Shown: positions 857 through 32,664, numbered from the stretch's first letter. The stretch is 64,000 bases of DNA from a virus (IMGVR_UViG_3300030330_005435:1-64000); one strand, 5' to 3'. Notes: generated by a model from the sequence alone, not told the origin. Made by a program: numbers and translations.

Positions 857-1203
857 CTCCAAAACAGTTGTACCCCTACGATCATAAACGAAAGCGCAAC
901 ACAAATCATTGTCTTGGTGGTGAACATACTCTCATGTAAAAAATACCATGTTAGTAATGGAAAAGTGAAATATGACATGCTGAATATCAGAAATCTAGGG
1001 CCCCATACTTCGCCCCATTCTTCATAACAAAGTTTGATACCGTACCAAAAGCATATGCCTGTTGGCACCGAAAACAAAACTGCCGCCATCAACGGTTTAT
1101 CTTTCCACCAATCCCACACAAATTGTGAGTTTAATTGAAACCAGCCAAGTGTTTGCCCAAGCGCGAATAAAAGGCACGCGAATATAATATTAAAAGTTGG
1201 CAA
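853..1203 (-). CDS. Small 4-TM membrane protein, SMR/DMT (EamA half)-like
   Basis: Four hydrophobic segments; C-terminal WYFLHE.MFTTKTMICVALS resembles the DMT 'FFGE.LT' signature; TTG start. Confidence 0.55.
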   Translation of the reverse strand: MPTFNIIFACLLFALGQTLGWFQLNSQFVWDWWKDKPLMAAVLFSVPTGICFWYGIKLCYEEWGEVWGPRFLIFSMSYFTFPLLTWYFLHESMFTTKTMICVALSFMIVGVQLFWR

Positions 1204-1948
1204 TTAAAATTTCCTTTGCATCTTGCTCGTTTGTGACGTTACCGTGCTGATTTATAAAATACATTTTATCACAAATTTTAGAGTAATTGTTGATAACGTG
1301 TGGTGCATTTTTGTATATTATTGCTGTATTTTTGTCTGTGTTTTTAAAATAATCGAGCAGTTCTGCGTGGTTTAGTTGTGTTTCTTCGAGGCCATAACTT
1401 TTTCCCTCTTCAAATAAATTTAATGAATATTTGCCGGCATTAATAATCTGGTAATCTCCCCGAGACATTGCGAGAGAGTCGATAATGTTTCCACCATCAA
1501 ATATTAAAAAAAAGTTTTCTGGCTTTCTAAATGTTTTTAAAACTGCTAAATCGGATTTATTAAGTTCGCTGGATTCCATGGAGCCGAATGATACTGCACC
1601 ATCCGATGAGCATTTATTCAAAAAGTAAAACAACGCTGAACGTATATATTGGTCTTTATACTTGGCAAAATTTTCCTGCAAAAAGGGGAATTCTTTTTCG
1701 TCAAATTTAAAAAATTCAGTGCTGACAATTTCATAAATTTTGTCTGGGTTTTCCAATAGGCACATCCAAAACTCATAAATTACATATTGTGTCGTATGGG
1801 CACATACAAACCTATTATATTTGGACAACATCATTTCAAGTTGGCCACTGAAAAACATATAGCTGTCAATTACAGACCCTTCGGGTATTATTTTCAAGAT
1901 CTGCGCTAAGGTGCTTGTTTCATGTATTTTATTCTTTAGCAATATCAT
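1190..1948 (-). CDS. Degenerate D12-class (Dam-like) DNA adenine methyltransferase fold, probably inactive
   Basis: ALFYFLNKCSSDG resembles Dam 'FxYLNRxxFNG'; the DPPY position reads NAGKY; start uncertain (1948 or 1972). Confidence 0.5.
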   Translation of the reverse strand: MILLKNKIHETSTLAQILKIIPEGSVIDSYMFFSGQLEMMLSKYNRFVCAHTTQYVIYEFWMCLLENPDKIYEIVSTEFFKFDEKEFPFLQENFAKYKDQYIRSALFYFLNKCSSDGAVSFGSMESSELNKSDLAVLKTFRKPENFFLIFDGGNIIDSLAMSRGDYQIINAGKYSLNLFEEGKSYGLEETQLNHAELLDYFKNTDKNTAIIYKNAPHVINNYSKICDKMYFINQHGNVTNEQDAKEILIANF

Positions 1949-2345
1949 TATGAGCGCTATTTTGTTGTTCAAACACTTCTTTGAAATTGTTGATGTGTTT
2001 TTCTAATTGATCAATATCAACTTCGCCTGGTTCATAAAGTGACGCGGTTGGAACATCATGCATCTGCTGTTGTGACTGCTCATCAATACCTGATTTGTGT
2101 GCAACGTAACCTTTTATGATATTTTGTATGTCCTGCAGCGCATAGTCAATATTCATAAGCGCAAGGCGTGCTTTTTCTACACACTCCATATTGTCCATTG
2201 TCAGTATATTTTCTGCTTCAGCTAATTCAGATAAGATACATGTGGACAGCTTTGATTGATCATGCGCTTTTTTAACTAACCTTAATGTTTCGTTTGGTAG
2301 TTCGTCTATGTCGACTGTATATTGTAAGTTTACTCTTTGTCCCAT
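1929..2345 (-). CDS. Hypothetical coiled-coil protein
   Basis: 138-aa ORF with GAGG RBS, in operon. Confidence 0.7.
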   Translation of the reverse strand: MGQRVNLQYTVDIDELPNETLRLVKKAHDQSKLSTCILSELAEAENILTMDNMECVEKARLALMNIDYALQDIQNIIKGYVAHKSGIDEQSQQQMHDVPTASLYEPGEVDIDQLEKHINNFKEVFEQQNSAHNDIAKE

Positions 2346-2346
2346 G

Positions 2347-2855: not shown

Positions 2856-2857
2856 AA

Positions 2858-4438
2858 TTAATCCGTCTGTATAATACCGTAATTAGTAGTAATTAGGGTA
2901 CCGGCACAACTGGCGGCGTTTTGTAGAGCGGTTCTGGTTACCTTTACAGGGTCAACAATGCCCGCGTCAAACAACTCAGACAGTTCGTGGCGCTTAAAAT
3001 CCCAACCATAATCTGTGTCGTGTCCTTTTTCAAGAATTTTAGAAATGATTATATCCGCTGATGAATGTCCTGAATTGACAGCCATTTGTCTAAGCGGCTC
3101 GCGGCACGCGACCTGTATAACCGATGCACCCAGTGCCTGATCAGCACTATCGGCTGTTATAACTAATGAACTACTGGCGCGCAAAAGCGAGGCGCCACCC
3201 CCAGGCAAAATGCCTTCATCAAGTGCCGATTTTACAGCCTCAAGCGCATCTTCAATACGATGCTTTCTTTCTGTCATCTCTACCTCTGTAGAGCCACCAA
3301 CGCGTATTACTGCTACGCCTGAAGATAATCTCACAACACGGCCTTGAATTCTTTCGCACTCGTCAATAGACTCTGTTTCTTCTATTTGTGTTTTAAGGCT
3401 TTCAATTTTTGTTTCAACCGTTTCAAAGTCACATTCACCTCCAACAATGGTGGTGAAATACTTGCTACATTCAATAGATTTTGCACTTCCGAGATCCGCC
3501 AAAGTCACCTCATTTAATTTTGTACCACTTTCGCGTGTAATAAAGTTAGCCCCTGTGGAAAGTGCTAGATCTTCTAATAAATCTCTGCGTTCTTCTCCGT
3601 AATGCGGAGCCTTGATTGCTGCGATCTTGAGTGTGCCTCGCATGGCGTTCATAATCATAGCCGCCAGTGCTTGGCCTTCAATTTCTTCTGCAACAAATAT
3701 TAACGGCCTACCTTCTCTCGCGGCCATTTCAAGCACGGGCATGATAGGTTCGACAGCAGAAACCTTATAGTCAGTAACTAAAATAAGTGGGTCTTCGTGC
3801 GACATGGCGGCGCGGCGCTCATCTGTCACGAAAGCTGCCGCGGCGTATCCTGACTGAAAGCGAAAACCTTCTGTAATGTCAATCGAAGTTTCAAGCGAGC
3901 GAGATTCTTCAATTGTGATCGAGCCGTCTTGTCCTACTTTATCGACTGCCATGGCGATGAGCTTGCCGATAGTGGGATCATTGTTGGCCGATATGGTCGC
4001 AATGTGCTCGATATCGTCGATACTACGAATAGGGTGTGCTAAATCTTTTAAATTATTAACAACTTCATCAACAGCCAATAAAATACCACGCTGTAGTTCG
4101 GTGGGAGATACACCAGAAGCAATAAATCTCTGTGATTCTCTCAAGATTGCTCTCGCTAGCACTGTTGCTGTGGTCGTACCATCGCCAGCATCAGCATTTG
4201 TTTGAACCGCTGCTTGTTTGATAACCTGAACCGCTGCATTCTCGATGGGATCTTCTAAGGCCACAAAATGTGCCACTGTTACCCCATCTTTTGTAACAAA
4301 CGGTGTTTTACCTTTTTCTTGTAGCAGAACATTGCGACCTCTCGGGCCAAGTGTTGAGGCTACATTGTCTGCTAAAATGTTTGCCCCTCTCATAATCTTT
4401 TGTTGTAATGTTTGATTGTCGTCGTATTCTCGACTCAT
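2858..4438 (-). CDS. groL: Chaperonin GroEL (Cpn60)
   Basis: TLGPRGRNV, TKDGVTVA, AGDGTTTAT, GGVAVIRVGG, GIVDPVKVTR; no GGM tail. Confidence 0.98.
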   Translation of the reverse strand: MSREYDDNQTLQQKIMRGANILADNVASTLGPRGRNVLLQEKGKTPFVTKDGVTVAHFVALEDPIENAAVQVIKQAAVQTNADAGDGTTTATVLARAILRESQRFIASGVSPTELQRGILLAVDEVVNNLKDLAHPIRSIDDIEHIATISANNDPTIGKLIAMAVDKVGQDGSITIEESRSLETSIDITEGFRFQSGYAAAAFVTDERRAAMSHEDPLILVTDYKVSAVEPIMPVLEMAAREGRPLIFVAEEIEGQALAAMIMNAMRGTLKIAAIKAPHYGEERRDLLEDLALSTGANFITRESGTKLNEVTLADLGSAKSIECSKYFTTIVGGECDFETVETKIESLKTQIEETESIDECERIQGRVVRLSSGVAVIRVGGSTEVEMTERKHRIEDALEAVKSALDEGILPGGGASLLRASSSLVITADSADQALGASVIQVACREPLRQMAVNSGHSSADIIISKILEKGHDTDYGWDFKRHELSELFDAGIVDPVKVTRTALQNAASCAGTLITTNYGIIQTD

Positions 4439-4460
4439 TAGTACCTCGAAGTTATATTAT

Positions 4461-4489
4461 ATTATAATCTCTTTTGATAATTATGTCAA
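4461..4489 (-). promoter_or_regulatory. Consensus sigma70 promoter for groEL operon
   Basis: TTGACA-17 nt-TATAAT. Confidence 0.9.
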
Positions 4490-5772
4490 GCACTTTCTTC
4501 ATCATCTGGCTGTTGAAGTTGTGCTTGAAGAGTTTGTTGAATATCAATAGAATCTTGAATAGCTTTTTCCCCTGAGTTGATTGCTGTGCTTCTCTTTTCC
4601 ACAAGGAAGTAGCGATTGATATTGTCAGACAAGGCCTTGGTTGCATTAAACAATTGCATTACTTCTTCGTTTAATTTATCCATGTGCATTCTTGCAACTT
4701 TTACAATTTGCTCTTCAGAGTATGGCAACGTGCCTAACGTAGTAACACCCAGCAGATCTTTAAAGGTACCAGACGATAGTTGAGGCACCGACAGCTTCCA
4801 TTGATAACCACCATCGCCTTTGCCACCTTCATTGATGGGCTCTTGTTGCGGTTCCTGTGGGAGTTCGGCGTCAGTTTCCTGGTCCACCTGTTTGTTTAAT
4901 CTTTTTTGTCGGACATTTTTACTATATCCTTTGGTTTGTTGCAACAAATCATACCTTTCAGGCCAGGTTTCTTTTGACATAATAAGTTTAATTGAATCTT
5001 CGTTGCTTAAGTCCGTGCCCCGAATTTGTAATATATCTGTCTTTCTGGCTCCACCTTTCGCTGTCATAATAAATGCTTTCATAAAATTTTCTTGAGTGAA
5101 TGTAAATTTTTCAATCGTCATGGCACCAGTGTTTTTATCTTTTCTGGCAACAATATATACCATCTTGCCAAACTCATCTAGTCCATCTACCAAGTTTGTA
5201 AAACTTCCCTCAACTACTGTTTTGGGACCAAGTAATTTAAGACTAATTGGCATAGCTTTGTCAGTGCCTTCAAAACCAATTAAATCTTGAATTGGTAGGT
5301 TGCCTTTTGCAGAAATTTCAGCTTCTTGGGTACCTTGAAGCAGTGCAGCTAGCCATCCTTCAAATACAAAACCCGCAGACGACGCATTGAAACTGCCGAT
5401 GACCGCTTTTAATGATTCCAGAATAATAATTGAGGATATGATGCGCCGCGGCGATGTAATTTTATTGTTTGGATCCACAATTCTCTGAAGGAATTGAAGC
5501 TTGCCTTCCACTGTGCGGCCACCACCGATAGCATTAAACAATTTGGTAATCTGTTGTCTCTCCATCGAGTTTGGATCACCCCAGGCTTCTGTTGGGGTGA
5601 ACTTAGGTAAGGATAGTACAAATTCTTTTGCTTTATCTGCTGCCATTTCAGTTACAAGTGGCTTAGTTGAAGATTCCATAATGGCGCTATACACCATATC
5701 CAAAATCTGATCATCATCTTTTGGCTTCTGTTCCCGTACCTCAATAAACATATCTTTCAAATAATCGCCCAT
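4486..5772 (-). CDS. Hypothetical 428-aa protein, possible PD-(D/E)XK-like domain
   Basis: Long ORF; GFVFEGWL...IQDL...ISLKLL pattern. Confidence 0.6.
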   Translation of the reverse strand: MGDYLKDMFIEVREQKPKDDDQILDMVYSAIMESSTKPLVTEMAADKAKEFVLSLPKFTPTEAWGDPNSMERQQITKLFNAIGGGRTVEGKLQFLQRIVDPNNKITSPRRIISSIIILESLKAVIGSFNASSAGFVFEGWLAALLQGTQEAEISAKGNLPIQDLIGFEGTDKAMPISLKLLGPKTVVEGSFTNLVDGLDEFGKMVYIVARKDKNTGAMTIEKFTFTQENFMKAFIMTAKGGARKTDILQIRGTDLSNEDSIKLIMSKETWPERYDLLQQTKGYSKNVRQKRLNKQVDQETDAELPQEPQQEPINEGGKGDGGYQWKLSVPQLSSGTFKDLLGVTTLGTLPYSEEQIVKVARMHMDKLNEEVMQLFNATKALSDNINRYFLVEKRSTAINSGEKAIQDSIDIQQTLQAQLQQPDDEESA

Positions 5773-5782
5773 CTATAAAACC

Positions 5783-6403
5783 TCATATAATTTCATCAGC
5801 AATGCCTAATTCCACCGCTTCTTCTGCTGATAAATAGACGTTAACTTTACGTTCTAGCATATTTTTTAATTTAACTCTCGTCAGTCTTGTCTCGGATATT
5901 AAAGCATCGCAATACATGTCTTGCAATTGTTCAATAGCTTCCATTTCGTTCATCATGTTATGTAGGGCACCATGGTTACCTCCCATGACAGAATGTATCA
6001 TAACGCGGCAGTTCTTACCAATATAGCGGTGCCCCTTGGTTCCTGCTGCCAGTAATAGAACGCCAGCAGACATAACCTTTCCAAGACCTACTGTATGTAT
6101 TTCGGTGCTGCTTCTTATATTTCTCATTAAGTCGTACATAGCGAACATATCATCTGCATTACCGCCATAAGTTGACAGGTAAAATGTAATAGGTCTTAGA
6201 TTATCTTGTTCAGCTTGTAAATTCAATTCATTGAAGTATAAAATACTCTGAATAATCTCTGCAACTTTTTCATCGTTTACATCGGCAAACAACCCAACAA
6301 CTCTCATGTCTGGCTCTTGTGGTCCCAGCGAGGCTGGGTCCAATATAACCACCTTCTTTTCTTCTTCAGGTCCAGAAATTATATCTTTAATCTTTTTTAT
6401 CAT
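5783..6403 (-). CDS. clpP: ClpP-family protease subunit (copy 1)
   Basis: STYGG, GKVMSAG (Ser), MIH (His), YLSAEEAVELGIADEI; catalytic Asp apparently replaced. Confidence 0.9.
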   Translation of the reverse strand: MIKKIKDIISGPEEEKKVVILDPASLGPQEPDMRVVGLFADVNDEKVAEIIQSILYFNELNLQAEQDNLRPITFYLSTYGGNADDMFAMYDLMRNIRSSTEIHTVGLGKVMSAGVLLLAAGTKGHRYIGKNCRVMIHSVMGGNHGALHNMMNEMEAIEQLQDMYCDALISETRLTRVKLKNMLERKVNVYLSAEEAVELGIADEII

Positions 6404-7680: not shown

Positions 7681-7941
7681 CTAAAAAAATGAGTTCAGCG
7701 ATGTCGTATGTTTCCTAATCTTACTTAGTGCTTTAGTTTCTATTTGTTTTATTCTTGCAAAAGAAAGATGCAGCCTTTCGGCAATTTGTCTTAATGTCAT
7801 AGAACCGTTGCGCTTCACAGATACCAAAGAGCAGTTATTTTCCTTCGAAAAATCTATCCAATGTTTGCAGTCTGTGTGTGGGCAAGCAACGTTAAGTTCT
7901 ACACACTTACGTGAGCATGCTAATAATCCGTCGCCTCTCAT
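7681..7941 (-). CDS. Sigma70 region-4 HTH protein with Cys-rich N-terminus
   Basis: MTLRQIAERLHLSFARIKQIETKALSKIR is a region 4.2 pattern; five Cys in the N-terminal half. Confidence 0.8.
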   Translation of the reverse strand: MRGDGLLACSRKCVELNVACPHTDCKHWIDFSKENNCSLVSVKRNGSMTLRQIAERLHLSFARIKQIETKALSKIRKHTTSLNSFF

Positions 7942-8267
7942 AAATCTGGATGTTCCTCTGCAATTAGGTCAAAGATGTTTTCTATCTCTGAGTCTTCAAA
8001 CGCTAAATCTTTCATCAATTCTTTTCCTTTGTTTTTTAATTTATTTATCTTGCTTGTTTTGGACTTAGACTGTCCACTGTTTTCAGAAATAAACTCAAAT
8101 AGCCTGTCATCGTCGTCAATAAATCCAGTAATAATTAAGCGAAAGAATTTTGATTGTGTAATCCCAACCTCTCGCAATTTCATCATAAACTGTGCGTGTC
8201 GATTATCGTTTTCTGTAAAAACAATACGCTTGTTTAAATTACCATAGTCTATATCAGGCATCACCAC
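7938..8267 (-). CDS. Hypothetical protein, possible ribbon-helix-helix-like regulator
   Basis: RIVF..NDNRHAQFMMKL...ITQSKFFRLII pattern; coupled to the sigma4 gene. Confidence 0.45.
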   Translation of the reverse strand: MVMPDIDYGNLNKRIVFTENDNRHAQFMMKLREVGITQSKFFRLIITGFIDDDDRLFEFISENSGQSKSKTSKINKLKNKGKELMKDLAFEDSEIENIFDLIAEEHPDL

Positions 8268-9307
8268 TGCCTATGGGTGATGTGAGTTCCACTTTCAGTT
8301 GCTCCCGCGCTGGTCTGGGTCACGAATATTGCCTTTGCTTGTAGTTCGCTGATTGTGCGGGCCCCTGAGTACGACAATCCAGATCTGATACCTTTTTCCA
8401 AATCATACAATATATCTGATACTGGGCCCTTGTATGGGACTGTTGAAGATACACCTTCAAACGAAGAGTACTTTCCCTTCCAATCAACTTGTGCCTCTTT
8501 GGAGGCCATGCCGCGGTAAGTTTTCCATGAAAATCCATCCTTACCTTTGTGTATCTGTCCTGGTGATTCCAACGTCCCAGCTAACAACGAACCGCACATC
8601 ACAGCATCAGCGCCGGCGGCGAGAGCTTTAACAATATCGCCTGAATTACGAATACCGCCGTCAGCAATAATTTTTACATCACGATCAGTCAAGGAGCAGT
8701 TTATGATTGTTTGTAGCCCAGGAACGCCGTGGCCAGTTTGAATCCGAGTTGAACAAATTGAGCCGCCTCCAATATTGCATCGAACCGAATTAGCGCCCCA
8801 GTCAGCCAAATCATTTATACCTTCAAGAGTAGCAACATTACCTGCCATAATGTGATAGTCATCACCTATCATGATCCTAAGACGATGCAATGCTGTTTTC
8901 ATAGTTGCATGGTGGCCATGTGCAACATCAACACAAAGAAAATTAGCGCCTTGGTTGTATGCCTCAGATGCTCGCTCAAGGTAATCTCCAGTAATACCGA
9001 TAGCGGCTCCAATATTATTGTTGATGTTTTTTGCTGCTTTAGAAATTATTTCAGACTGTTCATCAATGGTGTTATATCTATGTATAATTCCTGAGCCTCC
9101 CTGTGTATCCATTGCGATACACATTTTATCTTCTGTGACTGTATCCATCGGTGATGAAAACACGGGCAGGGTTAAGCACAAATCATTTCCTAAATCAGAA
9201 TCAAGATTAATCTCAGAGCGAGAAATAATATCTGAATATCTTGGTACTAATAATACATCATCGTACGAAAGACCTGATACGGTGTGTTCATTATTACGGG
9301 TAATCAT
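8261..9307 (-). CDS. GuaB family IMP dehydrogenase / GMP reductase lacking CBS domains
   Basis: [36 protein letters not shown] (catalytic Cys), IADGGI, YRGMAS, SGLSYSG. Confidence 0.93.
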
Positions 9308-9946: not shown

Positions 9947-10307
9947 CTTCAGTATTTTTCCTCAACAATTTAGCATTCCGTGTAGACTTGCGATAGGACG
10001 GCGAAATTTCTTCAAGCTGTTCTTCGTTGATAGTAGTTTCATTTTCCTGCTCAACCAAGACTTCAGTTACCTCTTCGGGCATATTTGATTTTTCTTCGTT
10101 TTCAGTTTGGCGCGCTAGTAAATCACCATATTGCGCCAATGTCAAAGCGGCGCCTTCATACTGGACCAGATTCAAAGCATGATTAGCAATCCTGTCAACT
10201 GTCCCAGGCTCTGATGGCCTGTGATAGATATCTTTAATGATTGCCAACTCTTCAGTGGCTTTTGATTTAAGTCTCTGTATTGCTGCTTGTAAAATTTCTT
10301 CTGTCAT
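9936..10307 (-). CDS. Hypothetical protein
   Basis: 123-aa ORF in operon with overlapping start/stop. Confidence 0.65.
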   Translation of the reverse strand: MTEEILQAAIQRLKSKATEELAIIKDIYHRPSEPGTVDRIANHALNLVQYEGAALTLAQYGDLLARQTENEEKSNMPEEVTEVLVEQENETTINEEQLEEISPSYRKSTRNAKLLRKNTEDES

Positions 10308-10777
10308 TTGTTAATTCCTTCTACTCTCCAAAGTTCTCCGCCTCCATCAAACACAACTACAGCGGAGGGAAACGGCGCGGAGTTACTACTGTCTCCAAAT
10401 TTAAGGCGACCCTTGACAAAGTGAATTTCGGATGCCTTCATAACATAGTTGTGCCAATATTTTGTATCTGTTCTCGCTGGGATGAGCATGACAACCTTTG
10501 TGTCAGATTTCTTAGCTTCATTATAAGCTTTCTCGATCCATTTGTCAATACCTCTTCCATACGGAGGATTGACAAAACATGTAAATCCCTCCCAATCTTT
10601 TTCTAAACCATTTTCTGCCTTTGTAAAAAAGTTGGCGCACTTCGTATTGTGTGGACTGGCGCACGGATCTAAGTCAAACGGCCCAAAGCGCCAATCAAGC
10701 TTATTGAAAAAATCTTGAGGGGTAGCCCAATTACCAGACTTCGAGCTGAACATTGTTCTTTGCGTTTCTTTATTCAT
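10304..10777 (-). CDS. Phage N6-adenine DNA methyltransferase (phage Dam family)
   Basis: WATPQ, FDLDPCA, FVNPPYG, LIPARTDTKYWH, GRLKF. Confidence 0.92.
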   Translation of the reverse strand: MNKETQRTMFSSKSGNWATPQDFFNKLDWRFGPFDLDPCASPHNTKCANFFTKAENGLEKDWEGFTCFVNPPYGRGIDKWIEKAYNEAKKSDTKVVMLIPARTDTKYWHNYVMKASEIHFVKGRLKFGDSSNSAPFPSAVVVFDGGGELWRVEGINK

Positions 10778-11931
10778 TGCTTTTCCTTAACCTCTACAAA
10801 TTCTTCTGAGTCTTCTTCCCACTGAAAGGCTCGATAGTCTCCTTGGTGCATTTGTTTTACAAACAAAATTTTAGTAATGATTGGATAACCTCCAAACTTG
10901 TAGACTTCATGCTTGTTAATTGCAGCAATCTTTGCAACAACCTTTGGGATCTCTTTTGAAATTGTTTCAGAAGAAGTAATTGAAGCAGTTAGATTGTCTC
11001 CAACACGCAACGTTGCATAGCACGGCACACGTACTGAAGATGCTGGTAAGTCGTTCTTCCAACAGTTCGTTAGCGTTTCTAAGATGCGATAGATTCGTGT
11101 TGGGCACTCAAACTTAAACACATTGCCAGTGTCGGTTGTCCAATCAACATTGGGAAAAAACCTTCTAGCATTTAAATCAATCTCTTCTTGCAATGGGAAC
11201 GAAAGTGATTGACCCCTATGTGATGCGAATGCTTTGTTGACGATTTCTCCCAAGAAGCGCTTCTTGGACGAGTGAGCAAAATCTGAACTAATGTTGTCGA
11301 TGGCCCACTGTTTTCCCCATTCAATCTGTTGTTCTTCATCCCACTGTCTTACGCTCTCAACAAACTTAGCCATTGTGTTGTACTCTGATTGAATTTGGTG
11401 TACCCAATCTTTGCTCGAATCTTCTCTTACAGAGTCGAGTCTTTTATTGCTTAGTCTTGCTAGTGAACTGCAAAACTTTAAAATTTCGTAAATCTCTGCA
11501 TCTTCATCAAAAATGACTTCTAGAAAATTAAACTTACTTTCTGCACCTTTGCTGATTGCTTTAAGATGGCCCTTGGCGCGCTTCCATCCAAATATCATAA
11601 ACAATTCGTCGTTTATGCGGGTTGCAATGGGAATTTGCGTTTGTGGTTTTTCTAAAACGTAAAATTCATCATAATAATTGACATCGCCTGCTAGAGTCGA
11701 GTTTGCTCTTGGTTGAAATGTCGGGTAGTATTCGTGGCTTTCAGAAACTAAATCGCTTAAATCGTGCTTTGTGCGTACACGAAAGTCTCTAACTAATTCA
11801 CTGCTGGTTAAAGCTGCCCATGCATCACGGATACGCGGATCAGTATTTCCTGGCAAGTCGTCATAACCGAGATCCCTTACCTTATTCTCAATTGTTGTTG
11901 TATTAATGTCTATGACATTTGATGCCTTCAT
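10774..11931 (-). CDS. Hypothetical 385-aa protein with ParB/Srx-like N-terminal motifs
   Basis: FQPR...IPI...MIFGWKR resembles the ParB-N 'QPR...PI...I.GxxR' box. Confidence 0.45.
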   Translation of the reverse strand: MKASNVIDINTTTIENKVRDLGYDDLPGNTDPRIRDAWAALTSSELVRDFRVRTKHDLSDLVSESHEYYPTFQPRANSTLAGDVNYYDEFYVLEKPQTQIPIATRINDELFMIFGWKRAKGHLKAISKGAESKFNFLEVIFDEDAEIYEILKFCSSLARLSNKRLDSVREDSSKDWVHQIQSEYNTMAKFVESVRQWDEEQQIEWGKQWAIDNISSDFAHSSKKRFLGEIVNKAFASHRGQSLSFPLQEEIDLNARRFFPNVDWTTDTGNVFKFECPTRIYRILETLTNCWKNDLPASSVRVPCYATLRVGDNLTASITSSETISKEIPKVVAKIAAINKHEVYKFGGYPIITKILFVKQMHQGDYRAFQWEEDSEEFVEVKEKQ

Positions 11932-12630
11932 TTATTCTCCTAAAATGTTTTGTTGTTTAATTCTTCTTTGTTCAAACCTTTCATCGGTTTTTTTATTAAT
12001 TTCTAATATTGTATCAATATTGTATGGTACATTGCAAGCTTTTTTTTCAAAAACCCAAAAATATGAGTGATATTTTCTTGCATGGCTTTGATTATTTTTA
12101 TGGTTGTGGCCAATGATGCGATTTTTAGCCAGCAAGACAAACATGTCTCTTGGGTAAAATCCATGAACAAGTGCGCGCTCCATGATATAACAATGAGAAA
12201 ACCAATTTTTACCAGACGAAACAGTATCCTGGCACTTAAATGCTAAGACACCTTTGTTTTTGAGAATCCTGCTAAATTCTGCTAAGCACTGGTCATACCA
12301 CCCCCACAAATCGGTTACATACCTAAATCCATGGAATCTTTTACCCATAATGCCGGTAGGTACAGCTTTGGTGTGACCCGCAACAAACGGAGGGTCAAAC
12401 ATAATGCTGGAAATACTGCTGTCATCAAACGGTAAATCATCAGCAGACGCCTTTTGTACCTCATCGTTCTTGGGAAACAAATCGTATTTATATCGAGGCT
12501 CAATAATCTCGGGAGATTTGTAAAAATTACCTTTGCTGTATGTTGGGTCTAGTTCAAACCCGTCAGGTGCGAACATCGTTTGTATGTTCTTAATGATTTC
12601 GTTTTGATCTTCTGATGTGCTCTTTATCAT
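11932..12630 (-). CDS. Amino-DNA methyltransferase (m4C or m6A)
   Basis: ELDPTYSKGNF SAM-binding motif followed by MFDPPF catalytic motif, EFSRILKNKGVLAFKCQD; start reassigned to MIKSTS. Confidence 0.85.
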   Translation of the reverse strand: MIKSTSEDQNEIIKNIQTMFAPDGFELDPTYSKGNFYKSPEIIEPRYKYDLFPKNDEVQKASADDLPFDDSSISSIMFDPPFVAGHTKAVPTGIMGKRFHGFRYVTDLWGWYDQCLAEFSRILKNKGVLAFKCQDTVSSGKNWFSHCYIMERALVHGFYPRDMFVLLAKNRIIGHNHKNNQSHARKYHSYFWVFEKKACNVPYNIDTILEINKKTDERFEQRRIKQQNILGE

Positions 12631-12635
12631 AATTA

Positions 12636-13388
12636 TCACATTACAGGGCATTTGAATTGAATCTTTTTGCCCTTGGTCCCAGTTGCATATGTCCAAGAGA
12701 GGCCAGTGCCGTATCCGCTCGCTCTACTAGTAATAGTATCAACTTGTTGTTCAATTGTGTAGGTAGAAAAAGAACTAGCATATCTTGTGTTATAATCAAC
12801 TTTAAACATAATTGTGTGATTTGCAATTCTTAAATCTTCTTCATGCTTATTGGGGCTTCCAGTTAGCGTCCAACGCACAAATTCTTTTTTTATAGGTGCA
12901 ATTTTGCTTTTTAAAATTTCACGCTCTTCAACGTTGAAGTTTTTACCAGATGCATCAGTTTGAAACTTATTCATTAACTGCAGCAATGTGGCGTCTGTTA
13001 TACCTACTTCTTCTTTGATGGTGCTAACATCAAATTCAGCCACCGCTATGTTCGCAGATGAGGATTGCTTCACAGATATTTTGATAAAAAGCCCATTAAT
13101 CGCCACACAAACATCAGTCTTTGCGGGTCCACCACTATCTCTTTTAGGTACTTCAATAATTTTAATTGTATCGACATGATCAATATTGTACACAGCGCAA
13201 GTTTGATAAAATATCTGCTCAGCCATATTGTCAGGTTGTCTATTGCAATTAAATTTGTTAGCAATGTCAGAATCGGAAAAAATCAATTCGATAAATTCTT
13301 CGTAAGCCAAGCCAGCAAGTGCTGTTTTACTGCCAACACTCCTGTCTGGATCACTGACACCGTGTTTGCCAAATAGGTTTCGCAACAT
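12636..13388 (-). CDS. MspI-family type II restriction endonuclease
   Basis: GLAYEEFI, GGPAKTD, ISVKQSS..IAVAEFDV..I...VGITD, FVRW, GYGTGLSWTYATGTKGKKIQFK align collinearly with MspI as recalled (GKLYEKYI, GGSPKTD, LNIKHSS..VSIAEYDV, GFGTGLNWTYASGSKAKKMQFK); AGGAG RBS. Confidence 0.85.
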   Translation of the reverse strand: MLRNLFGKHGVSDPDRSVGSKTALAGLAYEEFIELIFSDSDIANKFNCNRQPDNMAEQIFYQTCAVYNIDHVDTIKIIEVPKRDSGGPAKTDVCVAINGLFIKISVKQSSSANIAVAEFDVSTIKEEVGITDATLLQLMNKFQTDASGKNFNVEEREILKSKIAPIKKEFVRWTLTGSPNKHEEDLRIANHTIMFKVDYNTRYASSFSTYTIEQQVDTITSRASGYGTGLSWTYATGTKGKKIQFKCPVM

Positions 13389-14428: not shown

Positions 14429-15034
14429 TTACTGAAACTTGAACGATACACTAGTTTCTATTTTAAATTCTGGAATGTGTATGTGATTTGCTAGATTATG
14501 TTTTAAACACTCGTTCGCATCTAAGAACCAGTCAGCATGACCTTTCTCGTGTACTATATCAAGAAAATAATCTTTGCCGTGTCCACAATTTTCTGCCATC
14601 ATTTCAAAAATCTTTTTATTAAGACGTTCAGCTTCTGCTGTTGAAGCTTTCATTTCTTCAATCTTGTCCCAGGCCATGGCACTAACTTCGTGTATCATCA
14701 CAGTTGCATCAGGGTCTATGTAACGCATATTTTCGTGCCCAAAGCTAAACAAAATGGCACCACAGGACATTGCTTTGCCTTCGATAATTGTTGCTACGGG
14801 AATTCTGCTATGTTTTATATTAGAGATCATAGACATTAGGCTATATACCTGTCCTCCATAACTATCAATAATAACAGGAAGGACTGGTTGTCCCGTATTT
14901 TGTGCTTTTGACACAATTGATGAGAAAGCCTTGGCTGTAGGTTCATCAAATTTATTAATTCTCGCTACAACTGGCAGATCGTCAATCAAAGCCGGCTCTT
15001 TAAGTAATGGACTGAATGTCTTGAGTATATGCAT
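14429..15034 (-). CDS. clpP: ClpP-family protease subunit (copy 2)
   Basis: IDSYGG, GKAMSCG (Ser), MIHE (His), ADWFL (Asp). Confidence 0.9.
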   Translation of the reverse strand: MHILKTFSPLLKEPALIDDLPVVARINKFDEPTAKAFSSIVSKAQNTGQPVLPVIIDSYGGQVYSLMSMISNIKHSRIPVATIIEGKAMSCGAILFSFGHENMRYIDPDATVMIHEVSAMAWDKIEEMKASTAEAERLNKKIFEMMAENCGHGKDYFLDIVHEKGHADWFLDANECLKHNLANHIHIPEFKIETSVSFKFQ

Positions 15035-18000: not shown

Positions 18001-18470
18001 TTGTAAGACTCCGACACTAGTTTAAATAGATTGTTCAATCCAGTTTGATTCTGAGCAAGTAATACAAGATGGCGCCGGCGGCGTAGAATGTCCTGGGTCT
18101 TCTTCGAAGCACCCTCATCCTCAACTGTTGCACCAGAAGCAGCGTCCTTCTTTACAGCGCGGGCGCGCTTCTTGTCTTCCATGGCCTTGGTGTACTCTTC
18201 TTGCCATTCTTCAATGGATGGAATGAAGTATGCTTCACAGCCAAAGATAGGCTTGAAGTCTTTACCTTCGGCCTGCATCTTCTTTGCGTGTAGCACCTGA
18301 TAAGCAAGTCCGTTCATGTTGCCATGATCAGTAAGCGCCAAGGCATCACAACCATTTTCATATGCAAAGTCCATGTGATCCTGTGGATATCCGATAGCGT
18401 CAAAGATAGAGCCCGCCACAGAGTGTGCGTGCAGTCCAACAAATTTAATTTTAGAATCAATCCGATTCAT
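15039..18470 (-). CDS. dnaE: DNA polymerase III alpha subunit (PHP + family C polymerase)
   Basis: LHAHS, ALTDHGNM, GPGRGSAAGSL, DYPDIDYD, HAGGVVI, KFDLLGL, YGFNKSHA; AGGAGG RBS before MNRIDS. Confidence 0.97.
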   Translation of the reverse strand: MNRIDSKIKFVGLHAHSVAGSIFDAIGYPQDHMDFAYENGCDALALTDHGNMNGLAYQVLHAKKMQAEGKDFKPIFGCEAYFIPSIEEWQEEYTKAMEDKKRARAVKKDAASGATVEDEGASKKTQDILRRRRHLVLLAQNQTGLNNLFKLVSESYKAENFYRYPRIDYALLKKYNEGIIASSACLGGVYAGNYWENREDGDEAVLDAMRESTRRMVDIFGDRWYAEIQWNNIKEQHELNQYVIQVAKEFGVGLVTTADSHYPNPDAWKDRELYKRLGWLGKGRPSWADEESELPDGVEEIGYELYPKNGDQMWKSYKEYSDACGFQYDDELVLRSIEETHRIAHERIESFLPDNTVRLPEFVVPAGFTATQALVNYALEGLKDKGLHKNQKYIQRLREELNVIDDRGFSKYFLTMKSIADVATGMMLTGPGRGSAAGSLVAYALNITQVDPIKYGLLFSRFLRSDATDYPDIDYDVSDSMALKEKLVEMWGEDCVAPISNWNTLQLKSLIKDISKLYGIEFTEVNTVTSIMIREATPEAKRKHGIKAGVYAPTWEEVIEFSPTLRAYLDKYPAVKTHVEGLVGQVRSCSRHAGGVVIAENLDANMPLINSGGVRQAPWAEGQNVRHLEPMGFIKFDLLGLSTLKMMEGAIYHILKRHHNIEEPTFAQIRDYYEKTLHPDVLDMNDVSVYQKIFHAGKWAGIFQFTESGAQQFCTRAMPTNIIDVSAITSIFRPGPLSAGVDNDYVEAKEHPQRIQYLTPEARAITEETFGFLIFQEQIALLAHKLGGLTLDEGNMLRKVLTKKGTGKGSVKGKLHKKFIDGCSSNGIDKEKAQDLWNKFEFFSGYGFNKSHAVSYSIISYQCAWLYNYYPSEWMAAFLDKEPESRKEKAINIAKRFGFDIAPLDVNKSGTVWEISKDGKTLIQPLTSIKGLGAAAIEQILANRPLKNAEDLLFNENITYSKLNKKSLDALCRGGALDNILDDRFTGRKHFWSACIVDRPKNLKKLGENIELYEPEGDFTEEEIIQFKSDLTGVFPINLVISDETVERLQEKYIPPISEFDEELQVCWFIPRKVAERKTKNGKLYWIVEVIDSNNELTKIRCWGVKPQKDKIHLNRPYMARLKYDQNWGFSTYAIGKTFKLLG

Positions 18471-19350
18471 CAGTGCCCTCCTGAAGTGTATATGGTATCT
18501 TAGCATGAGTGTGTGGCTTTGTCAATAGATAATAAGGCGATTCTAAAATAAATTTAGAACGCATATACTCATTGTACCCGCCCCATGTTGAGATATCAAA
18601 AAAGTATTTAGAATTATAAGTATGTGCATTGTCGATACAAAGCTTCTCAAACACTTCAGAAAAATTGAATTTTCTTGCCGACCATCTTTCTTCAAGTGGC
18701 AACTTTCGTGATGGATATTGTTCTCCTTTTTCGGTGTTGTAATACTGTTTTGTAGTTTTAGAGTTTATATCTCTTCTGCAATTAAGATAATCGTTCTCAA
18801 ACATTGTAAAGCTAAGAGGTAGTTCATCTTTTACTGTTTTATTCTGGTGTGTTAAGAAAAAATTATTTTGGTTGTCGTTTATAAGTTTTCTGTGTTTTCT
18901 GATCTCGTAGATATTGAATACGCCCATGGGAAAGGAAACATAATATTTATTGGGTACAACCCATTTGGATATTTTATTTGCTGTAATCCAAGATGCATAT
19001 ATTCCTGATAAAACTGACCAGCCATACGAATCTCTACGGTCAATATTTTTCGGCATAATATTGCAATAATATATTGGTATTTCGCGCCTGTGTTCGGAGC
19101 CTTCACCATACTGTGAACGGCCCAAATAAACTGGATCATATGTCCAGTCTCCTACAGTTTTTCTAACGACTGGGGCCAAATCTGGATTGGCTACAATCCA
19201 AATTGTACTGCAGCCAGCATACGCACACTCTATAACTGACTTTTGAATCGCTGTAAACCCATTGTTAAGGGGTATCAAAACTTCTGGAAAATTAAAATTA
19301 AAGTCTGTCTGCAGATTGGCAACTGGTATGATGCCAGCCAGGTGATTCAT
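18457..19350 (-). CDS. Nucleotidyltransferase (sugar-phosphate NTase)-like protein with degenerate signature
   Basis: LAGIIPVA...PEVLIPL...IQKSVIECAYAGCSTIWIV matches the NTP_transferase N-terminal fold but lacks GxGTR and the conserved Lys. Confidence 0.6.
   Translation of the reverse strand: MNHLAGIIPVANLQTDFNFNFPEVLIPLNNGFTAIQKSVIECAYAGCSTIWIVANPDLAPVVRKTVGDWTYDPVYLGRSQYGEGSEHRREIPIYYCNIMPKNIDRRDSYGWSVLSGIYASWITANKISKWVVPNKYYVSFPMGVFNIYEIRKHRKLINDNQNNFFLTHQNKTVKDELPLSFTMFENDYLNCRRDINSKTTKQYYNTEKGEQYPSRKLPLEERWSARKFNFSEVFEKLCIDNAHTYNSKYFFDISTWGGYNEYMRSKFILESPYYLLTKPHTHAKIPYTLQEGTDESD
18497..18525 (-). promoter_or_regulatory. Sigma70 promoter for dnaE embedded in the upstream ORF
   Basis: TTGACA-17 nt-TAAGAT with TGn extended -10. 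Confidence 0.65.
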
Positions 19351-20231
19351 AAGTGCCTCAAAAATCTATCGTATTCCACACAAGCCTGTGGTAAGCGTGC
19401 ACAATAATCTTCTTTGATAATTTGCGGAGTTTTAATATTGCTGGCTTTTGGTGTGACTTTATGTTTAAGCTTGCGGATTGAGCGATTAATGCTAGTAGCT
19501 CTAATCTTGTAATGTTTGAGTTTTCCATTTGGTCCATATCCGTTTGAAGGCCCTTTCATGCCTCTGTTTTCCATTTCGTGAATTAATTTAAATCGAGCCA
19601 TAGTTTCTGAATAACTAAATTGATTCATTTGTTCCTGTGTTAAAAGAGAGACAGCACACACATCTTTTATAAGAGTGCGACCGTCAATCCGATCTGATGG
19701 GTAAAACCACATTTCTTTTGTAAAATTGTCATTTGTTTCAATTAAGTCGATCTCTTGTTTGCCACCTCTGTTAATAGCTATCCAATCATAGCATATATAC
19801 TTGTCAGTAGCAAGCGTTTTTTCAGAGGCAAAACCAGTGGCACTTTTATCGTTAAAATAATAACAGGTCTCAAACTCAAACTGAGCAATTTTTGAATATT
19901 CATTTGAGCAAATAATCTTGTTATCTACTCGACGTAATTTATTGCACAAATTTGATAACGGCGCTTTTGAATCTAAGGACAATAAAAACAGCATTCGTTC
20001 CCACAACAAAGTCTTAGGAAGTCCGACAATAATATCTTCAATGCCTGTTTTGATGATCGAAGGCTTGTTTTCCAATCTCACGCAAGATAAATCTATATTG
20101 TGATCAAGATAATCAAACCTAAATGGTATGTCGTAGTCCGAATGAATTATAGGATAATTGTGAACAAATGCAAATAGCACTGCCTCAAACGAACTGCCAA
20201 CAACAATATTGTCGTAACTATAACTCATCAA
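19347..20231 (-). CDS. Hypothetical protein with degenerate FAD/Rossmann-like N-terminus
   Basis: YDNIVVGSSFEAVLFA resembles YDxIVVGxGxxGxxxA. Confidence 0.45.
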   Translation of the reverse strand: MMSYSYDNIVVGSSFEAVLFAFVHNYPIIHSDYDIPFRFDYLDHNIDLSCVRLENKPSIIKTGIEDIIVGLPKTLLWERMLFLLSLDSKAPLSNLCNKLRRVDNKIICSNEYSKIAQFEFETCYYFNDKSATGFASEKTLATDKYICYDWIAINRGGKQEIDLIETNDNFTKEMWFYPSDRIDGRTLIKDVCAVSLLTQEQMNQFSYSETMARFKLIHEMENRGMKGPSNGYGPNGKLKHYKIRATSINRSIRKLKHKVTPKASNIKTPQIIKEDYCARLPQACVEYDRFLRHL

Positions 20232-28477: not shown

Positions 28478-28494
28478 ACTATATCTCCTTCATT

Positions 28495-28535: not shown

Positions 28536-28559
28536 CGGTCTCACAAGAGCCTAGTTACT

Positions 28560-29330: not shown

Positions 29331-29382
29331 TAGTTTTTTCTCCTATTTGTTTGTAAAGTATACTGTGCGTTCCACAGCATCT

Positions 29383-29411
29383 AATGTATCACTCTTGCTC
29401 TAGCTTGTCAA
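29383..29411 (-). promoter_or_regulatory. Sigma70 promoter for SSB
   Basis: TTGACA-17 nt-TACATT. Confidence 0.75.
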
Positions 29412-30252
29412 GAGTTTTTTTGGTTTGTACTACGTTAGTATGGGCAACGCAGAACCCAAAATCGTGATAAGGTGTTTCATAGATTGCATAAGAAATTTTG
29501 CGAAATGCATTTTTAGGCTTTTGCTTCAGCATGTCAACAATTTTCTTGTGTAATCCTCCCTCGGTTTCTAATCTTTCTGTATTGATAGCTAAATAATAGC
29601 ACAGTTCTCTCGGAGTGTCAAGGTTAAAAAACCATTTTTCCTCAAGATTTTTCATATTAAGCCCAGCAATCGCTCGAATACGATTAATTTCTGCTGGCTT
29701 TGATACTTGGCCAATCTCTGGCTCTGAATGAATAAAGTAATTTAAATGATGAATAGCTGAAAAAATAAAATTATTCAATGATGCGTAATAGGTTTTAATA
29801 TTCAAGTCGCCCAATGATTCCTCAATATGTAAATTTGAAATAACCGTAATTGAATTTAAAAGTCCAGATCTGGCATACTCCTGTAGGACTCCAAACGTTG
29901 TATTTTCAACAAGAACTGGATATCCAGTTAATAACTCTGTGTCTGGTTGAATGTAAATTAAGTCAATCTTTTTATCTTTGATTTGTTCTAAAATACCAAG
30001 AGTGTAATTGGAACTAAAGGAACCCCCCATAACAAAAAATTGAATGTAATCACTTGAGTCCTTAAAAAATTTTTCAACATTTGGAATATTTTGCTCATAT
30101 TCTTCAGGTACATCATAGTTCTTTAATTTAAATTCATATTTGTTGTTTTTTGAAACACTGGAGTTTAGCTTATACACTTTATATTGTTTAATATCAGCGA
30201 ACAATTCAGCTATCGCAGAAGCTGCATTTCCGAGACCCACTATTGAAATCAT
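29389..30252 (-). CDS. Divergent tubulin/FtsZ-superfamily (PhuZ/TubZ-like) protein
   Basis: ISIVGLGNAASAIA start; VMGGSFSS at the GGGTGSG position; IYIQP, ITVISN, LNNFI follow the tubulin secondary-structure order. Confidence 0.6.
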   Translation of the reverse strand: MISIVGLGNAASAIAELFADIKQYKVYKLNSSVSKNNKYEFKLKNYDVPEEYEQNIPNVEKFFKDSSDYIQFFVMGGSFSSNYTLGILEQIKDKKIDLIYIQPDTELLTGYPVLVENTTFGVLQEYARSGLLNSITVISNLHIEESLGDLNIKTYYASLNNFIFSAIHHLNYFIHSEPEIGQVSKPAEINRIRAIAGLNMKNLEEKWFFNLDTPRELCYYLAINTERLETEGGLHKKIVDMLKQKPKNAFRKISYAIYETPYHDFGFCVAHTNVVQTKKTLDKLEQE

Positions 30253-31418
30253 AACTTTAACTCTTTGAGGTTATAAGCATCTTTGCCAGCACTAACTGAT
30301 GCCATGAAGCCGTCTTCAAATATTTCCTTTATATCACCAATCATCTCTCGATCATCATCGCAATAATCCAAAACAATTTCATCATGAATTATGTGAGACA
30401 CATAACTTTTGTGACCTTCGAGCGCTTGGTCAATTTTTACCGCTTTATCCAAAACTCGATCAGCAGTAGCACTTTGTATAAGATAGTTAAATGCCTTTCT
30501 TTGCTCGACTTCAATTTGTCGTCCGTACGGCGTTTTAATAAAGGTGCCGTCGTACCATTTTTGTAACAAAGTTTCACGATCATAAAAATCAGTCTTAATA
30601 TCATTTGAATCGGGATCGTAAAGCCACGCAAAAAATCTAACCTTGCATTCATCACGTGTTACATCTTGTTCAAACAAATGTTTTGCATTCCACTCATGTA
30701 TATCTTCCTTTGGCTGCGCAACGCCTTGCAATTCGAGTAGTGTGCGTACCTCCGCACCATTGTAATCTAATGCAACGAACAGATCGTTATTGGGCTTTAT
30801 AATCTGTCTGATTTCTTTTTTAACAGTTAACATAGGAAAAGAATTTTGTTTTGTTGTAAGACGGCCTGTCACTGTACCAAACAAATCATAGTCAATAAAA
30901 TTTTGGTTTGCTATCTTTTTAATCTTAGTTCGCATGGGCGTTGAAGTTAATAAATGCTTGCAGTCGCTAATCTCAATATTTAAATTCTGATAACGTATTT
31001 TATGAAGAAGTTTTTGAACGGCGTCTAAATGATCGTAGTTTTTAGGTTTTGCAAAGTTATCAAAAACGTGTTCAGTAACTTTATTTTTAATTTCACAAAA
31101 TTGTAGTAAAAAATCATGCGGGATCAAATCATAAATGCAATGATCACGCAAATTTATTTTAGCAATCTCAAAAGATTTTACATATGCGCGGGCCTTTTTT
31201 TGAGCGTTCTGTAATTCCTCTACCAATTCCGCAGGGCAACACTCAACAAGCTCTTGACCGCCCGCATAAAGCCAACCATACTCAACTGTTTCATCACATA
31301 TAGAACCACTATATTTCCAAGTCTTGGTAAGTCCTGTTGGTATGTTTTTGAAGTCAAGTTTTCCGTTAGCGTATATGCCGATGCATTCATTTTTATCGTC
31401 AATAGCCTGAAAAATCAT
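30249..31418 (-). CDS. Miniature family A DNA polymerase (palm motifs retained)
   Basis: TVTGRLTT, motif A LDYNGAEVR, motif B K..FFAWLY, NYLIQSATAD, motif C IHDE; about 390 aa. Confidence 0.8.
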   Translation of the reverse strand: MIFQAIDDKNECIGIYANGKLDFKNIPTGLTKTWKYSGSICDETVEYGWLYAGGQELVECCPAELVEELQNAQKKARAYVKSFEIAKINLRDHCIYDLIPHDFLLQFCEIKNKVTEHVFDNFAKPKNYDHLDAVQKLLHKIRYQNLNIEISDCKHLLTSTPMRTKIKKIANQNFIDYDLFGTVTGRLTTKQNSFPMLTVKKEIRQIIKPNNDLFVALDYNGAEVRTLLELQGVAQPKEDIHEWNAKHLFEQDVTRDECKVRFFAWLYDPDSNDIKTDFYDRETLLQKWYDGTFIKTPYGRQIEVEQRKAFNYLIQSATADRVLDKAVKIDQALEGHKSYVSHIIHDEIVLDYCDDDREMIGDIKEIFEDGFMASVSAGKDAYNLKELKL

Positions 31419-32664
31419 TCCCACCCTCTTCCACTGTAATGTTGGATATCTTGCCTTTTTGAAAATCTTCAAGGCGGCGTTTTCTTTTACCTTCTCTAAT
31501 ATATCCTAAAGAGCCTTCAATGTCAAATGTTTTATTTATTTGTGACTCTAAAAATTCAAAAAGGTGATTTAAATTAGGGTTTGCGTTAAAATGATCAAGC
31601 TGATCTTTTACAACTCTATTGCACATTTCGCCGCTTAAATCAGGCATCTCTTCGTAAAGACGTATTTTGGTATATATCTCAACAAAATCATTATCGCTAA
31701 ACTGTTCTTTAAATTGTTGGAAAGTGTATCGCTCTGGCACAGTAGCACTTTGCACAATAGCACCAGTATCATCGCACACCACTAAATCGATGTACTCTTG
31801 TCTAATCAAATTGTATAAATCAAACATTGTTTTTTTAAAAAATGAAAAGTTATATCTTGACGAATTTGCATAATAATATGCCAATGTTTTATCTGCGGAA
31901 TTTGTTTCGATATACTTTGACGTCATTTCTAAAACACAATCTGCGTTTAAATCAATTACAATCCTCCATGGTATATTTAAGTCTACCATAAATCCGTACG
32001 AATCGCAAGTATTAACAAAAAAATGCCAATTTGGGCTTTTAACGAATGTGTTAATTTTGTCATCATCGTTTATATAATCTGAGTCGGCTATTTCAATAGC
32101 GAGCCCAGTAGACATTATTGAGCAATTCTTGCTTTTCAAAAATCCAGTGAATGTTAGTGGTTGATATTTTACTACTTCTTTAAGAATCGGCATTATTGCT
32201 GTGACCATTTGTTTAAAATTAGTTATCCGCACGCCTTCTTGCAATAACAACCCTGCCATAGAATTGAAAAACTGAACTTTATATGTCTGATACAGCGTAA
32301 GGGGGTCCTCGTATGCTTTATAAGCTTTTAAATTAGTTAAGAACGGATCATTTTCATTTATAGTGCCGTTTTGTGCGCATTTTTTAAATTGGTCGACCAT
32401 AGCATTGAATAGATCTACCACAAAGTTAACTGCAACTGGGGGAGTTGGTTGTTCTTCATAATATGCTATGTTAGTTAATTTATCTTTGGTAACTACTATA
32501 GGCACAAAGTTTCTATTAATTTTACCATATAAAATCTTTTCAGCACCATCCATTTGAATTATATTATTATGGTTTTGTGCTTTTAAGTATTCTCTATAAA
32601 CAGTCCTTTTATTAAAAAGGCGCATTGTGCTCTCGCCATTTGTTTCAGCAAAATATTGTGACAT
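31399..32664 (-). CDS. Hypothetical baseplate-region protein with degenerate peptidase M15B (VanY)-like segment
   Basis: SIMSTGLAIEI...FFVNTCDSYGF...IPWR versus VanY SEHxxGLAxD...WLxxNAxxYGF...EPWH. Confidence 0.5.
   Translation of the reverse strand: MSQYFAETNGESTMRLFNKRTVYREYLKAQNHNNIIQMDGAEKILYGKINRNFVPIVVTKDKLTNIAYYEEQPTPPVAVNFVVDLFNAMVDQFKKCAQNGTINENDPFLTNLKAYKAYEDPLTLYQTYKVQFFNSMAGLLLQEGVRITNFKQMVTAIMPILKEVVKYQPLTFTGFLKSKNCSIMSTGLAIEIADSDYINDDDKINTFVKSPNWHFFVNTCDSYGFMVDLNIPWRIVIDLNADCVLEMTSKYIETNSADKTLAYYYANSSRYNFSFFKKTMFDLYNLIRQEYIDLVVCDDTGAIVQSATVPERYTFQQFKEQFSDNDFVEIYTKIRLYEEMPDLSGEMCNRVVKDQLDHFNANPNLNHLFEFLESQINKTFDIEGSLGYIREGKRKRRLEDFQKGKISNITVEEGGNDFSGY

Follow-up and report, generated by a model that had tools for sequence, protein, structure and literature searches.

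Contig IMGVR_UViG_3300030330_005435 comes from a very abundant, uncultured lineage of marine myophages, and the first 64 kb of its 74 kb in IMG/VR (CheckV completeness of 39%) form the window analyzed here. All genes in the window are on the minus strand. Among them are six open reading frames (ORFs) that resemble known protein families and carry altered versions of the diagnostic motifs: a Dam-like ORF, a ClpP homologue (ClpP-1), an ORF resembling nucleotidyltransferases (NTase-like), an ORF resembling flavin adenine dinucleotide proteins (FAD-like), a tubulin-like ORF and a VanY-like ORF. An initial annotation of the window had singled these out as full-length genes with eroded catalytic residues. 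All six are indeed full length, at the given coordinates where it had placed them (ClpP-1 and the tubulin-like ORF had been named without positions), and the residue changes are as it had written, each being fixed across the family in alignments of relatives. We consider it probable that these are six independent, long-established genes in which the canonical motifs of known enzyme folds have been replaced by conserved ones, and that the genes are selected rather than decaying and are not coordinated with one another.

A class II ribonucleotide reductase query recovered 474 related stretches (viral contigs), including a complete genome of 195.7 kb. Relatives gathered from related contigs were used to build family alignments for the tubulin-like (A1), NTase-like (A2 and A6), FAD-like (A3), VanY-like (A4 and A7) and Dam-like (A5) proteins. 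The dN/dS values of the Dam-like and VanY-like genes were saturated among the first loci, and closer relatives were used instead. Selection is purifying in all six genes, with dN/dS of 0.09 for ClpP-1, 0.12 for the NTase-like gene, 0.18 for the FAD-like gene, 0.05-0.06 for the tubulin-like gene and 0.06 for the Dam-like gene (against a 92%-identical relative), and pN of 0.14 against pS of 0.75 for the VanY-like gene. The families retain intact ORFs down to about 20-30% identity. The genes are maintained by selection despite the loss of canonical catalytic residues, as expected of pseudoenzymes; the view that these are not simple pseudogenes holds, and neutral decay, which would have spoken against it, is not seen in any of the families. 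Judging from the alignments, the replaced motifs are old and themselves conserved (P-x-G-K-F in the Dam-like family, and E191, D228 and R234 in the VanY-like family), which points away from a recent borrowing of host scaffolds. The six genes appear to be stable subfamilies that have changed function or become non-catalytic, the latter as read from their motifs alone. ClpP-1 is an exception and is probably still catalytic.

Support for the folds differs among the six. Those assigned to the tubulin-like, ClpP-1, Dam-like and FAD-like ORFs stand, that of the NTase-like ORF is supported for its N-terminal third only, and the VanY-like ORF has only non-significant matches, which are in the expected register. 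The structural check proposed in the initial annotation (AlphaFold and Foldseek) was run on the tubulin-like and FAD-like proteins and returned the named fold for both. In single-sequence scans against Pfam and PHROG, ClpP-1 alone has a match and the five other ORFs have none. Pfam scans of each member of A2, A3 and A4 gave noise, bar one PF00483 match, and searches of the phage's own genome with PF02086, PF02557 and PF00483 returned zero candidates. Word-indexed homologue searches found close relatives only, none of them annotated.

The Dam-like ORF (1190-1948; 252 amino acids from its ATG) is a homologue of D12-class adenine methyltransferases. The family profile matches the PDB sequences 7m6b (E 4.5e-10, positions 30-254) and EcoDam (2g1p, E 0.004), and the homology to characterized members such as EcoDam, T4 Dam and DpnM (PF02086) extends over most of the length, including the L-N-R/x-x-x-x-G region. 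Unlike these proteins, the phage family lacks DPPY in 120 of 120 sequences and has a single motif I glycine. The motif IV DPPY of 7m6b aligns to N-A-G-K(Y), and [DNS]PP[YFW] occurs in 0 of 120 relatives, where the site is P-x-G-K-F with the aromatic residue retained. Motif I (FxGxG) and the acidic residue for the ribose of S-adenosylmethionine (SAM) are missing (G-G-G versus F-S-G, with G35 alone kept). The equivalent of EcoDam Asp54 is histidine in 110 of the 120 sequences, and the equivalents of R124 and L122 are lost. Pfam PF02086 does not match the single Dam-like sequence, nor does any PHROG family, and several relatives carry the JGI label "site-specific DNA-adenine methylase". These changes suggest that methylation activity has been lost. 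Binding of a flipped base or of DNA may persist, because the aromatic residue of motif IV is kept. METTL14 and DNMT3L are non-catalytic paralogues of methyltransferases, and the Dam-like case is comparable in kind. Ordinary-looking methyltransferases are found elsewhere in the window, at 10304-10777 (PF05869, with NPPY) and 11932-12696. Within 10304-13388, an MspI-like endonuclease (PF09208, E 1e-22) adjoins an N6/N4-type methyltransferase, and the PF05869 Dam with NPPY is separate, two genes from this pair.

The pair of genes formed by the FAD-like ORF (19347-20231; 294 amino acids) and the NTase-like ORF (18457-19350) lies directly upstream of the gene for DnaE, the DNA polymerase III alpha subunit (15039-18506; Pfam PHP, DNA_pol3_alpha, finger and HHH_6 domains). 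The overlap is 4 nt between the FAD-like and NTase-like genes and 50 nt between the latter and the dnaE start. An AlphaFold2 model of the FAD-like protein (pLDDT 85) has the two-domain flavoprotein fold of the amine-oxidase or PHBH-like type. In Foldseek it matches group A flavin monooxygenases and geranylgeranyl reductases at an E of about 1e-7, the TM scores being low, and a language-model search returned FAD-oxidoreductase clusters only. A profile search against PDB sequences found nothing relevant, and hhalign against the single E. coli Glf sequence gave a short, non-significant alignment in the expected register. The GxGxxG/A motif is replaced by G-S-S-F-E-A in the window. Its first glycine and final alanine are invariant, and the second glycine is absent in 27 of 27 close and four of five distant relatives. 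The flavin-free FAD-fold proteins Rab GDI and REP-1, as well as small flavoenzymes such as renalase, have no detectable sequence relationship to the ORF, which differs from them also in having only 294 amino acids and in always being paired with the NTase-like gene upstream of DnaE.

The first 55 or so residues of the NTase-like protein are in register with GalU, GalF and RmlA. When A6 was compared by hhalign with an alignment of E. coli GalU, GalF, RmlA and RffH, the first 54 columns aligned in register with a probability of 78.6% and E of 1.7e-5. PF00483 is the sole Pfam family with matches in multiple members (5 of 91; lowest E 0.019), and the nearest named clusters in the Atlas are NTP_transferase (score 0.91-0.92). 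The profile found no nucleotidyltransferase among PDB sequences, and hhalign against the single E. coli RmlA sequence gave a short, non-significant alignment in the expected register. We regard the support for this fold as moderate, based on sequence similarity. The G-x-G-T-R loop and the catalytic lysine are both altered in the window (G-L-G-T-R versus N-L-Q-T-D, and the lysine of "PK" versus glutamate); across the family, the arginine position is aspartate in 48 of 91 sequences and the lysine position is aspartate in 61 of 91. GalF, the E. coli paralogue of GalU annotated as "low activity", is the best single aligner to the family, and it too combines a nucleotidyltransferase-type N-terminus with a degraded GxGTR (G-L-G-M-H). 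The NTase-like family has lost far more than GalF (Arg to Asp, and Lys to Glu or Asp). It is also a large one, comprising 509 representative clusters at 50% identity.

All six lineages checked, namely that of the window and five distant ones (L115, L117, L125, L126 and L127), have the order FAD-like, NTase-like, DnaE. In the five distant lineages, the ORF preceding the NTase-like gene encodes 227-288 amino acids and matches the FAD-like HMM (E 1e-31 to 2e-4), and DnaE follows the NTase-like gene directly or after a few small ORFs, the incomplete ORFs there being 57-63% identical to DnaE. A gene for ThyX (once intein-bearing) or dUTPase is often near the trio in these lineages. No other functional clue in the region is as strong as this fixed trio, and the conservation of the trio suggests a functional module around the DnaE replicase. 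We infer that the FAD-like and NTase-like proteins would act as a pair tied to DnaE or to nucleotide supply. The score for a predicted complex of the two was 0.00 against a mark of 0.32, which is uninformative either way.

The tubulin-like ORF (29389-30252) encodes 287 amino acids, for which the AlphaFold2 model is confident (pLDDT 89, pTM 0.88) and has the two-domain tubulin/FtsZ fold, with a GTPase and an activation domain. The T4 signature [SAG]GGTG[SAT]G is replaced by G-G-S-F-S-S-N in the window and by G-[SGA]-S-x-S-S-N in 21 of 21 sequences, so that a family consensus of G-S-S-x-S-S-N stands where GGGTG[ST]G is expected. The T1 loop (G-L-G-N-A-A-S in the window) has two glycines left in the family. 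By direct reading of the sequence, the spacing from T4 to P-D-x-E...G equals that from T4 to T5 in E. coli FtsZ. A conserved acidic segment, E177-P-E179-I-G, follows helix H7, and its equivalence to the T7 loop is inferred from position only. A family profile search found nothing relevant among PDB sequences. With hhalign, the profile has no similarity to the phage's own canonical tubulin and gives a short, non-significant alignment in the expected register with the single E. coli FtsZ sequence. BFVD contains no close relative of the family, the best viral matches being at most 13% identical.

The canonical tubulin is encoded beyond the window on the same contig, at 73247-74050 of the genome (L114:11248-12051, minus strand), where the end of the contig truncates it. 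Its sequence has GGGGGTGSS and matches CetZ (E 3.7e-8) and PF00091 (E 1.4e-4). In relatives it has about 380 amino acids and is 94-99% identical, and so is far better conserved than the degenerate paralogue. The two tubulins co-occur in four of five records of relatives, including the complete genome. Compared with PhuZ, TubZ and archaeal CetZ, the degenerate protein lacks GGGTG[ST]G and the glycine-rich T1 loop, is only 287 amino acids long, has no C-terminal tail, is coupled to a polymerase gene, and exists beside a separate canonical tubulin. The polymerase is a mini family-A enzyme (mini-PolA, 30249-31418; PF00476, E 4.3e-13), whose gene lies downstream of the VanY-like gene and upstream of the tubulin-like gene. 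The tubulin-like start overlaps the mini-PolA stop by 4 nt (ATGA), and the two genes are translationally coupled. The order VanY-like, mini-PolA, tubulin-like and gp32 is preserved in a related locus (L112), with overlapping stops and starts. From its motifs, the tubulin-fold protein would bind GTP poorly or not at all. It is probably a scaffold or modulator that works with mini-PolA and the replication module, or with the canonical tubulin.

The VanY-like ORF (31399-32664) encodes 421 amino acids, with large regions flanking two central motifs, S-I-M-S-T-G-L-A-I-E-I and Y-G-F-...-P-W-R. The gene follows those for the tape measure protein, a 399-amino acid ORF and a 1427-amino acid ORF, and precedes mini-PolA, with overlapping junctions. 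VanXYg (4mur) ranks first or second among the PDB profile matches to the family and is non-significant (E 0.79 and 0.45); hhalign aligns the same segment with the T5 endolysin (E 0.085, probability below 1%). In these alignments the S-x-H-x-x-G-L-A-I-D of LAS enzymes is opposite S-I-M-S-T-G-L-A-I-E, with Met for His and Glu for Asp, and Y-G-F...P-W-R is found where LAS enzymes have Y-G-F...P-W-H. The ORF thus resembles LAS/M15 peptidases (VanY, VanXYg and the T5 endolysin) locally, in both zinc-binding segments, and differs from them in lacking all three zinc ligands, the homology not being statistically established. The positions of the ligands H, D and H are occupied by a variable residue (M, L or N), by E (69 of 69) and by R (69 of 69). 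Invariant in the 69 sequences are E191, D228, R234, G224, F225 and P232. Neither the ORF nor its family members have a Pfam match, and annotation is present on 0 of 106 relatives. The LAS fold is a weak, unproven assignment based on these motifs. If correct, it would make the protein a metal-free LAS-like domain protein at the boundary of the tail and replication modules.

ClpP-1 (5783-6403) is a member of the ClpP (peptidase S14) family by profile, with PF00574 matching at E 2.6e-31 over 17-179 of 182 profile positions. In the precursor numbering of E. coli ClpP, Ser111 and His136 are retained and Asn stands in place of Asp185, in the window and in 18 of 18 relatives, which leaves a Ser-His-Asn site. 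A second homologue, ClpP-2 (14429-15034; PF00574, E 3.2e-19), is encoded 4 nt downstream of dnaE and has the full Ser-His-Asp triad, complete in the window protein and in 23 of 23 relatives. The two are about 22-27% identical and their genes are not adjacent. In Listeria monocytogenes, ClpP1 has Asn for Asp172 and forms an inactive heptamer alone, becoming active only when stacked on ClpP2 (PMC5361862). The phage likewise has two paralogues, one with Asn for the triad Asp and one canonical; it differs in the separation of the two genes and in the low identity of their products, for which a heterocomplex is predicted. ClpP-2 is the likely partner ring, and ClpP-1 probably works in a mixed ClpP-1/ClpP-2 barrel in the Listeria fashion, in which case it would still be catalytic. 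A regulated subunit is more likely than a dead one, because Listeria ClpP1 carries the same Asn and is active in the heterocomplex. No ClpX-like ATPase was recognized adjoining either gene. ClpP-1 adjoins an unassigned ORF of 428 amino acids and a GroEL-like chaperonin. The 428-amino acid ORF (4486-5772), which lies between the two and varies from 428 to 615 amino acids among relatives, was considered as a ClpX-like partner and rejected, as it has neither a Walker A motif nor a family match.

Several observations weigh against the reading of long-established genes with replaced motifs. The new conserved residues could form new active sites, giving enzymes with new chemistry; candidates are E-C...A-G-C and W-H-D in the NTase-like family, H-T and P-x-G-K-F in the Dam-like family, and E191, D228 and R234 in the VanY-like family. 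One distant FAD-like relative (L125:50-892) has G-N-G-P-I-A, a usable GxGxxA, so that dinucleotide binding may be ancestral in the family. The acidic residues that appear to be kept at the expected T7 loop of the tubulin-like protein argue for some nucleotide-dependent function. The homology of the NTase-like protein is confined to the first 55 or so residues, and the fold of the VanY-like protein depends on non-significant matches.

The alternative that survives best takes up the first of these points. Some of the proteins (the Dam-like protein and the FAD-like/NTase-like pair being the likeliest) would be working enzymes with new chemistry on an old fold, for example in nucleotide metabolism or in DNA modification feeding the DnaE replicase. 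The conservation of the replaced motifs, dN/dS values as low as in true enzymes, the GxGxxA of the one distant FAD-like relative, and the position of the pair among ThyX, dUTPase and DnaE in distant phages are all consistent with this. PaMx11 gp47 (8z79, 286 amino acids), an FAD-dependent lyase of thymidine hypermodification, is also among the Foldseek matches of the FAD-like protein (E 3e-6), but this match is no better than those to dozens of unrelated flavoenzymes and is outside the top 50 by Z. The charge reversal at the phosphate-binding site of the NTase-like protein (Arg to Asp, Lys to Glu or Asp) argues against NTP binding, the second glycine of GxGxxG is missing in five of six FAD-like lineages, and no substrate can be named. 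We see new chemistry as a genuine possibility, though one that falls short of an even chance.

A chance match of short motifs between proteins of other folds is possible and somewhat doubtful for the VanY-like ORF, and less of a concern for the NTase-like ORF. The PDB E values of 0.45-0.79, the hhalign probability below 1%, the lack of a Pfam match and the 106 unannotated relatives would fit such a coincidence in the VanY-like family, as would, for the NTase-like family, the PDB profile searches without a nucleotidyltransferase and an alignment limited to 54 columns. On the other side, VanXYg and the T5 endolysin are independent LAS enzymes whose alignments cover the same VanY-like motif and agree in register, the second LAS-like motif (Y-G-F...P-W-R) is at a compatible distance, and three independent methods give the same family for the NTase-like ORF.

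Tight linkage to a DNA polymerase gene is seen for three of the six, to DnaE for the FAD-like/NTase-like pair and to mini-PolA for the tubulin-like gene. It is conceivable, but in our view improbable, that former enzyme folds have been recruited as non-catalytic replication parts in this lineage and its wider relatives. If true, the tubulin-fold protein would be a polymerase or replisome-organizing factor without a GTP cycle, and the FAD-fold/NTase-fold pair an accessory module dedicated to the phage's DnaE.

Slightly less probable still, and very unlikely overall, is the proposal of the initial annotation that the proteins are host enzyme scaffolds turned into anti-defense sponges, decoys or dominant-negative inhibitors (for example a tubulin-fold poison of FtsZ, a sponge of SAM or of a nucleotide signal, or a poison of ClpP): catalytic residues lost from a retained fold are what a decoy requires, and restriction-modification-like genes are also in the genome, but the six genes are core, syntenic and slowly evolving, lie within replication operons with overlapping frames, and fit such a role poorly. 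Phage-encoded signal sponges such as Tad1, Tad2 and Acb2 are known, but counter-defense genes are typically accessory, fast-evolving and patchy. None of the six proteins is near a host protein (8-17% identity to solved homologues), the phage's own canonical ClpP-2 and tubulin make partners within the phage the simpler reading, and no known anti-defense family was seen in passing, apart from one stray Tad8 match (E 0.13, in 1 of 28 members).

The reading of six separate genes, selected and carrying replaced motifs, also bears on the idea that they form a collection. They are scattered over 31 kb, amid about 39 coding-strand ORFs of at least 80 amino acids between 1 and 37 kb, 20 of which have ordinary Pfam matches, and they differ in neighbors and in family breadth, with no tie among them. 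The 106 proteins of the VanY-like family all belong to this lineage, against the 509 representative clusters of the NTase-like family. Non-canonical sites occur in five or six of about 25 recognized folds, a highish share that is biased by the selection made in the initial annotation. "Collection" is a label, and the six genes are not one coordinated system. As a collection they are of little import and mainly show that a considerable fraction of the genes without annotation in a large phage encode remote homologues of enzymes, with replaced motifs. Taken singly, each of the six represents an uncharacterized protein family, and three of these families are common in the ocean. The FAD-like/NTase-like pair, tied to DnaE even in distant phages, stands out as a candidate for a new function in replication or nucleotide supply. 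A tubulin fold lacking the GTP signature beside a canonical tubulin in the same phage offers a natural test of the fold without a nucleotide cycle. The ClpP-1/ClpP-2 pair would extend to phages a regulatory arrangement known from a few bacteria.

The lineage is distant from cultured phages. DnaE has at most 31% identity to any cultured-phage protein, megablast with an 8.4-kb query found no DNA match among cultured phages, and in a tblastn search of cultured phages the tubulin-like, NTase-like and central VanY-like sequences had no relative. The region of the six ORFs encodes auxiliary and replication functions. Auxiliary genes are those for a phosphomannomutase-like HAD hydrolase (101-904), the GroEL-type chaperonin (2858-4438), a small sigma-70 region 4 protein (7681-7941) and a GMP reductase/IMPDH-family enzyme (8261-9307). 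Also encoded there are thioredoxin, the two DNA methyltransferases, the MspI-like endonuclease, DnaE, ribonucleotide reductase, DnaB, a 5'-3' exonuclease, UvdE, RecA, gp32 and mini-PolA, together with an amidase endolysin. Tail and head genes are found above about 37 kb and include those for the tape measure protein (38513-41176), the sheath (43018-45993) and the major head protein (52066-53841). Between the tail genes and the VanY-like gene is the ORF of 1427 amino acids (32666-36949), which is without any Pfam or PHROG match and is conserved in relatives (1395 amino acids in L112).

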